A DNA stretch of 64,000 nucleotides, from assembly GCA_963765495.1 (NCBI GenBank), contig CAVXWP010000015.1, positions 1 through 64,000 on the forward strand, read 5' to 3'. The translations under genes and the position numbers were made by a program. Source of the stretch: Blastocatellia bacterium (GTDB lineage: Bacteria; Acidobacteriota; Blastocatellia; UBA7656). The notes beneath the pieces were generated by a model, which did not search any database, was not told where the DNA came from, and was given only the letters and a program-made list of their open reading frames with translations. Below, piece after piece: positions 6,571 through 52,823 of the stretch (within the stretch, counting starts at the first letter, position 1; every line of letters begins with the position of its first letter).

Positions 6571-6646
<76 letters not shown>

Positions 6647-32254: not shown

Positions 32255-32716
32255 TCAGTCTCCCTTTTTTGGGGACGTCCGGGTTCTCTTTTGTGGCGGC
32301 GACCACTGATAGGTGCTCAGGTCACAATGGCCTCGTTCGTCAAACACTACGCCCTCGGCTTCGAGCAAGAGGCGCTGAAGGTCGGGTTGTTGGATAGTGA
32401 TTCGCCCTGTCGAAATCCCTCCGCGCGAATTTATCACTCGATGCCAGGGGATGTTGCGTTCATCTTGCGGAGTCGCGTGCATGGCCCACCCTACGAGGCG
32501 CGGGCTGTAGCGGTCTTCTAGCAATCGGGCAATCTGACCGTAAGTCATAACACGCCCGCGCGGTATTCGTAGCACCATCCGGTATATCTTCTCGAAGGCC
32601 TGATCGTAACCGGGACGGGATTCAGCCTTTGCCGGTCTTGTCTTTCCGTCTTCGCTTTGCGGGCGGGTGCCCGGACCTCTTTCCCGCTTTTTTCCGCTTT
32701 GACCGATTTTCCCCAT
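32255..32716 (-). CDS. Alkyltransferase-like (ATL, MGMT family) protein
   Basis: IPRGRVMTYGQIA, RLVGWAM, PWHRV (Trp replaces the MGMT acceptor Cys), LLEAEGV. Confidence 0.9.
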   Translation of the reverse strand: MGKIGQSGKKRERGPGTRPQSEDGKTRPAKAESRPGYDQAFEKIYRMVLRIPRGRVMTYGQIARLLEDRYSPRLVGWAMHATPQDERNIPWHRVINSRGGISTGRITIQQPDLQRLLLEAEGVVFDERGHCDLSTYQWSPPQKRTRTSPKKGD

Positions 32717-33105
32717 CTCTTTGAATAGTCACTTCCTTTCAGACCGATATTATCCGTGACCAAAGGGCGGGTCGCAACCAAAAGTCGATGTTGGCGCTTG
32801 TACATCAGTTGCCGTTGTTTGACAGTTGCTAAAGATTGTCAGGCGGGAGGTGGCAAATTGCGGCGGCTGTTGAATATAGCCCCACGTCATAGAATTAGAA
32901 ATTTTTTCTATGGGCGGTAGGCTCACTGCTTTGGGGAGGAGCCTAAGTCTTGAAGTAACACAATTTGTCAACCGCGACTTCCGAAAATTGTTAACCCGTG
33001 GCTTGAACTTATCCGGTCATGTTGAAAGTTATTCTTTAAGGGTTATGACCTAACCTGAAATCAAAAAAGCCGATCCGGGTTCTTATCTTTATGCGTGGCA
33101 GGCAG

Positions 33106-33121
33106 TGGCACGCCCATTGCA
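33106..33121 (+). promoter_or_regulatory. Consensus sigma54 promoter
   Basis: TGGCACGCCCATTGCA matches TGGCACG-N4-TTGCA. Confidence 0.8.
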
Positions 33122-33131
33122 AAAGGGAACA

Positions 33132-33430
33132 GTGGTTCTAGCAGTTCGACAGTTTGATAAGGAAACCTCTTCTGCTCAGAGCAACTGCGGGATGCAGAAC
33201 TAAGTGCAGAGAATGGAAGGGAGGATGGGGGCCCTGCCTTCCATTCAATGCTAAAACCTGAGATCGACAGAAGCGAGCAGGCTCGATCGGTCTAATAATA
33301 ATGAAGCTTTTGCAACACTGAGAGAAGCGACAGACAGACGAAGTTCAAGGTGTAGGGGCACAAGGGGGCGTGGCCCTACATCCTGACTAAGCCGCCGATG
33401 ACTGAGGTTATCGGCGGCTATTATTTTTTG
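33132..33430 (+). ncRNA. Candidate sigma54-dependent structured small RNA (~300 nt)
   Basis: Bounded by a sigma54 promoter and an intrinsic terminator; four internal hairpins; no ORF in the track. Confidence 0.55.
33390..33430 (+). terminator. Intrinsic terminator
   Basis: AGCCGCCGATGAC-tgag-GTTATCGGCGGCT followed by ATTATTTTTT. Confidence 0.85.
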
Positions 33431-33724
33431 GCTTTTATTTTTTTCTGCCGGTTAATCCTGCCAAAATTTTCTTCACGCATCACGCGTCATCGAATGAAAG
33501 GGTCGTTTCGGAATCCTTAAACTTATGTGTTATGATTTGTGCAGACAGCGAAGAGGGTGCCTGTCTCAGCCTGGAAAAAATTGACAGAGGTGAGCGCATG
33601 GGTTGTAGGAAAAAGCCCCACGGGGAAATTGTCAGGGAAGAAGCGCTCGGGCTGCGAAACCTCTCCATAGCTCTCAATCTATACATGGCTTTCAAGAACA
33701 TACACAAAATAACGAGGACAGATC

Positions 33725-35023
33725 ATGACACGCGGCAGAAAGTTCAAGTCGGCGCGGCGCAAGCCCGGAAGCGAGCGCTCCCTGTTCGAGCAAAAACTGA
33801 TCGGAGGATATTCGCGAACGCTTGACCGGATTGATCTGTTAAACCTCATACGCGGCGGAGAAGATACTTACCTCGAATTCAAGATTCGGCTGGTCAACAC
33901 CGATAAAGTGACAGGCGAAATCGTAGCTCTCGCCAATGCCGGGGGCGGCGCAATCATCTTCGGCGTGAACGATCAGCGCAGGCTCGAAGGTCTTGACGAC
34001 CCGGAACAGGTCGAAGAACAACTGATAGACATCTGCCGCAACCAGATAATACCTCCTCTTTTGCCTCGTATAGACAAGGTCGCTTTCGATAACGGCACCC
34101 GCATAGTGGTCTTACAGGTTGACGACCGCCGCGCGCCCCATACTACACCCGATCACCGTTACTTTCTCCGCATAGGCTCGCACAAGCGCGAAGCCGAGGG
34201 GCTGGAAATAGCCGCGCTTTTTGCCCGTTCCCGTGTAGTGGCCTTTGAGGATATGCCGCTTGTGAGGGCCGACATCGAAGACGTTGACGAGGCGCTTGTG
34301 TGGAGTTACATACGCGATCTCGAAGGCGAAACCTTCCGCGAGCCGGACGGCTTTCCCACGCCTGCGGCCATGCGAGATTTGAGACTGGCCTCCGATTACG
34401 GGATGAGCATTACGCCGACGCTTGCGGGCTTTCTTCTCTTTGCGCGCAGCAGCGCCATCGAGCAAATAATCCCTCAAAGCGTGGTTTCCCTTGTTCGCTA
34501 TTCCGGCTCGGACCCGCATTCTCCGGTAGTAGAAAACGCCGACGTTTACGGCAATTTGACGAGGTCATTCGATCTGGCGCTTTCCTTTATCAAGCGTTAC
34601 GCCGATCTGTGGGATGCGCGCCCGCCTCGTTCTCAAACCCATCTGGATGAAAGCAGGAAAGAGCCTGTGCGCGCCCGCGCCAATTATCCGCGTCAGGCTG
34701 TCATCGAGGCCCTGACAAATATGCTTGTGCACCGCGATTATTCTATGACCGGTCCCCCGGCCCGCGTGCTGATTTATGACGACCGCATCCATTTCATCAA
34801 CCCCAGCCACACAAACGGAGCAAGCCGCAAATCCGTAGAATACGGAGCGACCCTGCGGCTCAACCCGCGATTGCATCATGTATTCACGAGCCCGGAATAT
34901 GGCGTAGCGCCCGCGCCGCGCGGCATCCCTGCGCTTCGCAGATCGCATTACGCATTCACCCGGCGCGAGCCCCGAATCACCCTCACAGGCGATGAATTCA
35001 GCCTCGAACTCTACGGCATTTGA
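33725..35023 (+). CDS. Schlafen AlbA_2 domain + HATPase_c_4-like protein
   Basis: EDTYLEFK, IVALANAGGGAIIFGVND; YPRQAVIEALTNMLVHRDYS...IYDDRI. Confidence 0.85.
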   Translation: MTRGRKFKSARRKPGSERSLFEQKLIGGYSRTLDRIDLLNLIRGGEDTYLEFKIRLVNTDKVTGEIVALANAGGGAIIFGVNDQRRLEGLDDPEQVEEQLIDICRNQIIPPLLPRIDKVAFDNGTRIVVLQVDDRRAPHTTPDHRYFLRIGSHKREAEGLEIAALFARSRVVAFEDMPLVRADIEDVDEALVWSYIRDLEGETFREPDGFPTPAAMRDLRLASDYGMSITPTLAGFLLFARSSAIEQIIPQSVVSLVRYSGSDPHSPVVENADVYGNLTRSFDLALSFIKRYADLWDARPPRSQTHLDESRKEPVRARANYPRQAVIEALTNMLVHRDYSMTGPPARVLIYDDRIHFINPSHTNGASRKSVEYGATLRLNPRLHHVFTSPEYGVAPAPRGIPALRRSHYAFTRREPRITLTGDEFSLELYGI

Positions 35024-52365: not shown

Positions 52366-52566
52366 CGGCAGCCAGACATCCTCTGGAGGGATGAGGGATG
52401 AGGGATGAGGGATGAAAAAGACTCTAAAGACAAATTCCAATTAATTGGCTTGACCTATTATCGGAGTATTTCCCTAAAGTCCTATTCATCCCTCATCCCT
52501 CATCCCTCATCCCTCAAAAGGCCTTGGCTTTGCGACCCAGGATTACTCCTGGTGTGCCTTTATCGG
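52366..52566 (-). ncRNA. c-di-GMP-I (GEMM-I) riboswitch with a ~128-nt heptamer element in P3
   Basis: Minus strand: CGAUAAAG-GCACA-CCAGGA-GUAA-UCCUGG-GUCGCAA-AGCCAAGGCCUUUUG-[insert]-CCAGAGGAUGUCUGGCU-GCCG; GNRA-capped P2, GCAAA junction, G at the position equivalent to G20. Confidence 0.82.
52387..52514. repeat. (AGGGATG)4...(CATCCCT)4 inverted heptamer element (A3)
   Basis: Read directly; inner ends closely match A4 in the opposite orientation. Confidence 0.93.
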
Positions 52567-52823
52567 TGAAACATCCGCTCGCGCGATTGGCGTGTGAGCT
52601 TGTCAATCGGGCTCGCAGATTCGATTAAATCGGTAACAGATTGTGAAATGACGCATCCGGGGTATCGAATCGAAGTAGTCATTCACAATCCCGGCCGATA
52701 AACCTTCTCAAACACAACGGAACAAACTTTATCTAATGCCCTGAAACGCTTCGGGCTTCGCGCAAATCCGAAATTTAACGCGGCCTGTGGGGCGATAAAG
52801 AGAGAGCCGTCCTGTAATCAATA

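Follow-up and report, generated by a model that had tools for sequence, protein, structure and literature searches.

An intergenic gap in the genome of a soil-dwelling Blastocatellia bacterium (phylum Acidobacteriota; GenBank assembly GCA_963765495.1) very probably harbors an independent gene whose product is a non-coding RNA of about 300 nt. The gap lies in a stretch of 64,000 nt (contig CAVXWP010000015.1, positions 1 to 64,000), referred to below as the window. On sequence grounds, the gene is predicted to comprise a sigma54-type promoter, probably activated by an enhancer-binding protein, and an intrinsic terminator, and to be the largest of six paralogs that share a hairpin with a G-rich loop, the G-loop module. 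The locus had been described in an initial annotation as a novel sigma54-dependent, multi-hairpin small regulatory RNA (sRNA) of no recognized Rfam family, situated in a gap of ~1 kb between divergent genes and closed by a terminator ~270 nt after the promoter; a sponge or a base-pairing RNA was suggested. In its structural parts this description is supported by a conserved promoter and enhancer-like sites, covarying hairpins, the terminator itself, the lack of a conserved open reading frame (ORF) or of an Rfam match, and the copies of relatives found in RNA libraries. Acidobacteria are among the most abundant bacteria of soil. A literature survey covering titles and the openings of abstracts returned no sigma54-dependent or other sRNA of Acidobacteria or Blastocatellia. 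The RNA motif is new, the family is clearly defined, and its distribution is lineage-specific; the kind of element, an enhancer-dependent regulatory sRNA, is already known.

Promoter, Terminator, and Predicted Transcript

The gap measures 1008 nt (32717-33724) and separates ORFs on opposite strands, assigned by Pfam to an MGMT-type DNA_binding_1 protein (32255-32716, minus strand) and a Schlafen AlbA_2 protein (33725-35023, plus strand). Within the 64-kb window the promoter pattern TGGCACGNNNNTTGCW has a single match, at the site first annotated, against 0.01 expected (100 shuffles). Across all loci, 40 distinct full-length copies of this longest type, the long form, were recovered, and these 40 homologs are the alignment set used below. 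TGGCA[CT]-N5-TTGC is present in all of them, with differing spacer letters. The -12 C at 33120 places the predicted start at 33132; the 12 nt from the promoter to 33134 are variable, and invariant RNA sequence begins at 33134. Among long forms, similarity sets in with the T of TGGCAC and does not extend past the terminal T-run.

The terminator begins 269 nt past the end of the promoter, and its stem (33390-33419; 8 of 13 pairs G-C) is followed by the tail ATTATTTTTT. A simple terminator scan gave one site in 1.2 kb compared with 1.4 in shuffled sequences. This count alone is not above chance; the reality of the terminator rests on its conservation and covariation. The RNA folds with an energy of -116.9 kcal/mol. 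Shuffled sequences give -88.4 +/- 4.8 (z = -5.96), and 0 of 200 equal the native value. The reverse strand folds equally well (z = -6.15), and the strand is thus given not by folding energy but by the promoter, the terminator, and conserved G-U pairs.

Table 1. Coordinates of the predicted sRNA gene, its control region, and its paralogs (window positions unless a contig is named).
Feature	Position	Strand	Remarks
Sigma54-type promoter, TGGCACGcccaTTGCA / TGGCACGCCCATTGCA	33106-33121	+	GG at 33107-33108, GC at 33119-33120
Predicted transcript, ~299 nt	33132-33430	+	Start inferred from -12 element, end from T-run
5' domain, long form only	33134-33201	+	Nearly invariant; proposed helices hardly or never vary
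G-loop module 1: 10-bp stem, G·G mismatch, 3 bp AGG/CCU, loop AUGGGGGC (33225-33232)	33211-33246	+	Near-invariant in 40 homologs
Hairpin 3: variable stem, apical loop GAGCAG (33275-33280)	33262-33288	+	
Conserved linker ACUGAGAGAAGCGACAGACAG, candidate seed	33317-33337	+	Predicted partly unpaired
G-loop module 2: 9-bp stem, G·G mismatch, 3 bp CAC/GUG, loop AAGGGGGC (33362-33369)	33349-33382	+	
Intrinsic terminator: 13-bp stem, 4-nt loop, T-run	33390-33429	+	6 of 12 aligned pairs changed on both sides (40 homologs)
Upstream activating site (UAS) 1, enhancer-like, TAACACAATTTGTCA, ~-150	32956-32970	+	40/40 homologs, ungapped; top matrix score of the genome, 24.3
UAS2, enhancer-like, TTCCGAAAATTGTTA, ~-127	32979-32993	+	40/40 homologs; 23 bp from UAS1, start to start
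A/T-rich block TGAAAGTnATTCTTTAAG, ~-75	33023-33040		Consensus TgAAAGT..tT..T.AAg, 40 upstream regions
Block CTAAyC...AAAAGC, ~-55 to -35	33050-33071		Conserved in upstream alignment
GCTTTGGGGCA-like block, CTGCTTTGGGGAG in the window, ~-175	32926-32938		Consensus gcTTtgGGgcA, 40 upstream regions
Distal enhancer-like pair AAGATTGTCA ... TGGCAAATTGCGGCG, second inverted, ~-275 and ~-250	32832-32865		Conserved, 40 upstream regions
Six G-loop loci of the genome	C15:33106 (window), C1:952462, C1:817689, C7:734998, C9:169178, C8:349048	C1:952462 (-), C1:817689 (+), C7:734998 (+), C9:169178 (-), C8:349048 (-)	

Structure of the RNA

Covariation supports a set of conserved hairpins. RNAalifold, applied to the 40 sequences, predicted 53 pairs, 19 of them with compensatory changes; shuffles gave 11.4 +/- 1.8 (0 of 500 reached 19) and slid registers 2-8. 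The covariation score of the long form was 0.218, compared with 0.141 for shuffles and 0.04-0.06 for slid registers. Most of this signal comes from module 2, in which 10 of 12 pairs have changed on both sides and the inner helix CAC/GUG has become CAU/AUG in seven homologs and CAG/CUG in two. In module 1 the only such exchange noted, GGAAGG/CCUUCC to GGAAAG/CUUUCC, occurs in 2 of the 40. The 5' domain and module 1 vary so little that covariation speaks neither for nor against their folds.

Four stems had originally been drawn. Those at 33211-33246, 33262-33288, and 33349-33382 are confirmed, while the stem at 33170-33199 (UUCUGC/GCAGAA) is able to form within a 5' domain that has several rival folds, between which covariation does not decide. 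The two GGGGGC loops also reported are found in both modules, as A-N-GGGGGC in all 40 long forms (assigned by homology), and are the hallmark of a multi-copy family. The repeated AGAAGCGA does occur twice (33269-33276 and 33323-33330), but only the second copy is conserved in relatives. The apical GAGCAG of hairpin 3 is kept in 35 of 40 homologs and falls within a hairpin loop of the minimum free energy fold of that segment in 33 of the 35, with stem sequences that diverge between genomes. The linker core GAGAAGCGACA is invariant in all 40 long forms and its flanking positions nearly so.

The RNA contains only tiny ORFs (32-40 aa), as first stated. Across the 40 homologs no ORF shows a conserved start, frame, or length; the best start is common to 25 of them and leads to products of 15-77 aa with different stops, and the invariant blocks show no third-position pattern. 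Searched against Rfam 15 (4227 models) at the gathering threshold, the whole window yielded only a tRNA and a c-di-GMP-I riboswitch, both outside the gap. This comparison takes in Qrr, GlmY, GlmZ, CrcZ, RsmY/Z, CsrB, Pxr, Acido-1, and Acido-Lenti-1, as far as the library has them. At E-values up to 10, the segment 32700-33750 gave eight matches, all far below their thresholds, the best reaching 19.5 bits against a threshold of 93.

Sequences of relatives were also present in sequencing runs. An index of such runs returned three with small word shares (0.06-0.13), whose contigs were placed at 80% likeness. Two of the three are rhizosphere RNA libraries from two studies with one contig each, of 151 nt at depth 67.8 and 168 nt at depth 13.2; these contigs show neither ends nor strand, RNA libraries can contain DNA, and the uncovered parts are uninformative. 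Each matches the window letter for letter, over 33163-33248 or 33180-33248, before running on into the hairpin 3 of a relative. The third run, probably of DNA, contains a 240-nt contig that includes a promoter. By our reckoning, uniform DNA from a genome of at least 5.5 Mb could not reach a depth of 67.8 in a run of 81 million letters, since it would take more letters than the run contains. This depth hints weakly at an abundant RNA in relatives.

The G-Loop Module and Its Paralogs

The linker sequence GAGAAGCGACAGA has one further copy in the genome, at C1:952372 (contig and position) on the minus strand. There it belongs to a short RNA gene (~150 nt) that has a promoter of its own, TGGCACGcgcaTTGCC, and encodes one hairpin at the 5' end and two more whose loops read ACGGGGGC. 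Matches to the enhancer-like site, together with a scan for the hairpin itself, brought the number of loci in the genome to six (Table 1), all of which carry GGCA[CT]-N5-TTGC and an enhancer-like site. In all six the module is built alike: above a variable outer stem comes a 1x1 mismatch (G·G or G·A), then exactly 3 variable base pairs, then the invariant 8-nt loop A-N-GGGGGC. Most family members carry two such modules. The copy at C8:349048 has a single module, and that at C7:734998 lacks a T-run past its second.

The module is distinctive within the genome. Three base pairs on either side of A.GGGGGC occur at 59 sites; in 11 of these the outer stem measures 7 bp or longer, and each of the 11 belongs to one of the six loci. 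In the other 48 it is no longer than 4 bp. Across 72 distinct modules all 11 pairs have changed on both sides, with a covariation score of 1.149 (shuffles, 0.33; slid registers, 0.12-0.20). Because pairing had been a criterion in choosing the modules, the 99% found paired is circular, unlike the variety of pair types; A-N-GGGGGC in 72 of 72 likewise follows from the construction of the search.

Thirty distinct two-module short forms were compared. In 28 of them GGCA[CT]-N5-TTGC lies 52-57 nt upstream of module 1, and in 22 an enhancer-like site is found at -88 to -113. Nearly all begin with a GCGUAGC-like sequence ~3 nt past the predicted start. The linker core GAAGCGAC stands between the modules in 21 of the 30 and is missing in nine, including three of the six loci of the genome; the short paralog C1:952462 carries ACUGAGAGAAGCGACAGACAG as well.

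Distribution and Genomic Context

Among the genomes searched, only one family of Blastocatellia has G-loop genes. When 41 related genomes were searched at the DNA level, a homolog turned up in 22 of the 24 belonging to this family and in 0 of 16 from seven other families. The strict two-module pattern occurred in 46 of 52 genomes of the family and in 5 of 248 from the other nine Blastocatellia families, with reversed-pattern controls near zero; the five outside matches look like chance in G+C-rich sequence. A covariance model built from 28 short forms recovered exactly the six loci in the source genome (E-values up to 1), and in a sample of the class it found 1-7 copies in each of 34 family genomes and none in 116 genomes of the other nine families.

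The 28-nt core of the module-1 hairpin (hairpin 2), compared with a species-level genome collection, matched 39 records, titled 'Blastocatellia bacterium' (30), 'Acidobacteriota bacterium' (3), 'Chloracidobacterium sp. UBA7656' (1), 'Candidatus Onstottus arcticum' (1), and 'uncultured Clostridia bacterium' (4). The last four public records contain a full Blastocatellia-type sRNA gene, and their titles are probably taxonomic mislabels.

Of the 40 long-form loci, 35 have a divergent MGMT-like gene upstream, separated from the sRNA gene in 26 by a DinB-family gene that the window does not have. The largest clusters of downstream ORFs cover 12-13 of the 40 loci, and the downstream gene of the window is in none of the 15 largest. 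The short form with GAGAAGCGACAGA has a conserved ORF close by on the opposite strand in 11 loci; in the source genome the first residues of this ORF look RadA-like by eye. Other short types have conserved neighbors that are upstream or convergent. As each paralog type keeps its own conserved neighborhood, the G-loop genes are old, vertically inherited, stand-alone genes, and are neither leaders nor mobile repeats.

Upstream Control Region

An alignment of the 260 nt preceding the promoters of the 40 long-form homologs revealed two enhancer-like sites, at ~-150 and ~-127, with the consensus T[GA][AC]C[GA]NAATTTGT[CT]A. All 80 proximal sites align ungapped and five positions are invariant. The A/T-rich block closer to the promoter is a possible DNA-bending (IHF-like) site. 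Together with the -24/-12 elements, the two enhancer-like sites and the possible bending site would make up the textbook layout of an enhancer-dependent sigma54 promoter. Farther out, in the interval that separates the sRNA promoter from the divergent DinB/MGMT-like genes, are the GCTTTGGGGCA-like block and the distal, partly inverted site pair.

The genome encodes rpoN and has 31 strong matches to the Sigma54_activat domain. When a matrix derived from the 80 enhancer-like sites was run over the 7.3-Mb genome, six of the eight top sites lay upstream of five sRNA loci. Because these best sites so often precede sRNA genes, the result suggests that one of the ~31 sigma54 activators may be devoted mainly to RNA genes. 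At C12:107750-107905 an enhancer-like pair and a weaker sigma54-like element, CTGGTATCAAAACTGCC, precede an ORF of 193 aa that begins MRCPNCH and belongs to no Pfam family, and convergent to this ORF is a sigma54 activator of GAF/AAA+/HTH_8 type (C12:108559-110091). This locus is a lead only, possibly to a further member of the regulon or to the cognate activator.

Possible Function of the G-Loop RNAs

The reading that we tentatively favor over base pairing is that the G-loop sRNAs titrate a common G-loop-binding factor. It is preferred for the fixed geometry of the module combined with freely varying stems, for the two modules per RNA, and for the several genes per genome. Once switched on, a dedicated activator would fill the cell with many copies of the module, and most members would also yield the purine-rich linker containing GAGAAGCGACAGA. 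Modules and linker could then act in trans as decoys that titrate a single RNA-binding factor, and the invariant 5' domain and GAGCAG hairpin of the long form could recruit a second partner or set stability. RsmY/Z and CrcZ are known to titrate their proteins. Two elements are more conserved than hairpin stability requires, namely the G-loops, which every family member has, and the purine-rich linker, which occurs in the long form and in most short forms. It further speaks for a decoy that the module is universal and the linker is not (GAAGCGAC being missing from 9 of 30 short forms), that crude target scans found no excess of complementary sites, and that a relative's copy reaches a depth of 67.8 in an RNA library. 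More speculatively, and with rather less confidence, the module may be the recognition element of a novel RNA-binding regulator and the six sRNAs the output of one sigma54 activator, forming a lineage-specific global post-transcriptional switch with the long form as its elaborated master member. Such a switch would be comparable to Gac/Rsm or Cbr/Crc and built from unrelated parts.

A number of points, together with the limits of the library contigs given above, weigh against this account. The sigma54 dependence, the transcript ends, and the action in trans of the window RNA are themselves inferred from sequence. No strong Sigma54_activat match lies beside any of the six loci of the genome, and a sigma54-activator domain was found in the flanks of 1 of 106 loci examined. 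No partner protein emerged among the CsrA, RRM, and RapZ-like candidates. CsrA (PF02599) has 0 matches in the genome, which is 97.94% complete, and its control was positive in three reference genomes. Proteins with an RRM_1 domain, of which the genome has seven (at C10:65909-67136 and five other places, two of them adjacent), were rejected as a family-specific partner, as all 81 sampled Blastocatellia genomes have 1-8 of them. A RapZ-like protein is a candidate only, since such proteins are widespread and the sRNAs are confined to one bacterial family. Hfq, too, is not particular to the family that carries the sRNAs. On the side of base pairing stand the invariance of the linker core in all long forms and its resemblance to a classical seed, the presence of Hfq, and the pattern of several sigma54-driven paralogs with one type of enhancer, which is that of Qrr. 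The negative target scans described below are weak evidence, resting as they do on crude gene calls in one genome.

The putative partner of the G-loop RNAs is not CsrA: besides the missing gene, CsrA sites carry GGA at the place where these loops carry GGG. The RapZ-like_N match (C12:138019-138480) stands beside rpoN (C12:139348-139821); the gene immediately follows rpoN, an order also known from the rpoN operons of proteobacteria. The ANTAR domain (PF03861) was unmatched in the genome, but its control was positive in none of 14 reference genomes. RNAs that bind ANTAR proteins are dual hairpins with two hexaloops carrying A1 and G4, and the loops here are of 8 nt.

Base pairing of the Qrr type is the strongest alternative, although we consider it somewhat unlikely. 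The six paralogs would pair redundantly with mRNAs, probably with the help of Hfq (encoded in the genome), through the linker (A)CUGAGAGAAGCGACAGA, the G-rich loops, or both, and the hairpins would serve mainly for stability and presentation of the seed. Beyond the points already listed, the predicted partly unpaired state of the linker and the occurrence of GAAGCGAC between the modules of most short forms agree with such a role. Against this, the motif is absent from those nine short forms that include half of the loci of the genome, and the strict geometry of 3 bp, mismatch, and 8-nt loop is unneeded for a seed. Duplexes of the linker with 10,613 crude 5' regions gave no outlier (best -28.3 kcal/mol, compared with -27.4 to -32.4 for three shuffled queries), and GCCCCC is not enriched near starts.

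Several specific targets and interactions were considered and set aside. Exact complements of linker 10-mers occur at 211 sites of the genome, the top two of which are the antisense of the sRNA genes, and no other stands out. As C-rich partner sites, GCCCCC and GCCCCCNU show no enrichment at -100 to +40 of 5,876 crude ORFs; the peak of GGGGGC at ~-15 in the table of ORF starts is an artefact of the rule by which starts were picked. Among 311 well-defined starts, AGGAG was counted 52 times, GGAGG 31 times, and GGGGG 7 times, in an assembly that lacks the 16S 3' end; as the usual ribosome-binding site is AGGAG/GGAGG and not G5, the loops are not plain mimics of the Shine-Dalgarno sequence. An internal anti-seed, in which CUUCUGCUCAG of the 5' domain would pair with CUGAGAGAAG, reached -18.6 kcal/mol, a value matched by 65 of 500 shuffles (-14.7 +/- 3.4).

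A structured RNA in some other role, as a ribonucleoprotein component, a ligand- or ion-binding RNA, or a molecule that self-associates through its G-tracts, with neither titration nor pairing, is improbable. The near-invariance of the 5' domain (33134-33201) and module 1 over 40 homologs of many genera exceeds the needs of hairpin stability, and every module supplies G-tracts, as this role would have it; yet the modules covary as ordinary hairpins do, control by an inducible sigma54 promoter and an arrangement in several copies are what regulators typically show, and no Rfam model resembles the RNA. Very improbable is a cis-acting leader or attenuator of the Schlafen AlbA_2 gene, which shares the strand of the RNA and starts ~295 nt beyond the terminator: the conserved block is closed by a strong, conserved terminator, the downstream genes differ between genomes, and the short paralogs have their conserved neighbors upstream or on the other strand. 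Just as remote are a gene for a small protein and a non-functional repeat or mobile element, for despite the tiny ORFs and the multiple copies no ORF and no third-position pattern is conserved, each paralog has its own conserved neighborhood (MGMT-like upstream for the long form, separate synteny for the short forms), and every copy has its own promoter at fixed distance.

Comparison with Known Regulatory RNAs

None of Qrr, CrcZ, GlmY/GlmZ, or RsmY/Z is a relative of the G-loop RNAs, and the likeness is one of working logic. Qrr1-5 of Vibrio, which depend on sigma54 and LuxO, are likewise short, multi-hairpin paralogs, each with a sigma54-type promoter, the same type of activator site, a terminator, and an invariant stretch. 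They differ in phylum and in their hallmark, a linear 32-nt region as opposed to a hairpin-loop module here, and the G-loop RNAs have no Rfam match. The LuxO site also differs from the enhancer-like site found here. That the Qrr system consists of several sigma54-dependent paralogs sharing one type of enhancer is established knowledge (10.1101/2021.07.01.450815). The G-loop genes show the same arrangement, with a shared enhancer-like site at six loci in the genome and 1-7 copies per family genome; as for homology to Qrr, there is no Rfam match, and as for pairing, which in Qrr involves a LuxR/HapR-type mRNA, the crude target scan gave no outlier.

RsmY, RsmZ, and CsrB share with the G-loop RNAs a short motif repeated in hairpin loops and several redundant sRNA genes. 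The core of the CsrA-binding site is A-N-GGA-N-G, and A-N-GGGGG looks similar. Here, however, GGG replaces the essential GGA, no CsrA gene was found, the promoter is of sigma54 type and not under GacA, each RNA has only two modules, and there is no Rfam match. CrcZ and CrcY of Pseudomonas, a sigma54- and CbrB-dependent sponge for Hfq/Crc with which the initial annotation had compared the locus, resemble it in the sigma54-type promoter with activator sites, the purine- or A-rich linkers, and the presence of Hfq; they differ in that the window RNA has no array of A-rich CA motifs, a G-rich loop as its conserved element, and no match in Rfam. GlmY and GlmZ of Enterobacteria are homologous sRNAs dependent on sigma54 and GlrR, GlmY acting as a decoy for RapZ (PMC3045617, PMC7073468). 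Shared features are a long and a short form with common modules, sigma54-type promoters with activator sites, and a RapZ-like gene next to rpoN, and by analogy homologous sRNAs of different function could coexist here as GlmY and GlmZ do. On the other side are the missing Rfam match and the wide occurrence of RapZ-like proteins, compared with sRNAs of a single bacterial family.

The G-loop RNAs constitute a well-delimited sRNA family that is open to direct testing, with exact coordinates for promoter, enhancer, and terminator, a compact motif for use as bait, and a covariance model that finds the copies. Should the G-loops bind protein, the pair would be a new RNA-protein regulatory system; should they pair with RNA, a Qrr-like circuit would exist in a distant phylum. 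The occurrence in 34 of 34 genomes of the family and 0 of 116 outside it is a clean profile against which matching proteins can be sought.

Other Features of the Window and the Genome

The two Rfam matches in the window are both on the minus strand, the c-di-GMP-I riboswitch at 52496-52568, which barely attains the gathering score (35.3 vs 35 bits), and the tRNA gene at 6574-6646. Short tandem repeats stand beside several paralogs: GATTTTA-like units follow the C1 short form (C1:952270-952300, minus strand), runs rich in GGGGCC/GGCCCC lie upstream of it (C1:952640-952760), and TGATGCG heptamers are found upstream of the C9 copy (C9:169350-169420).

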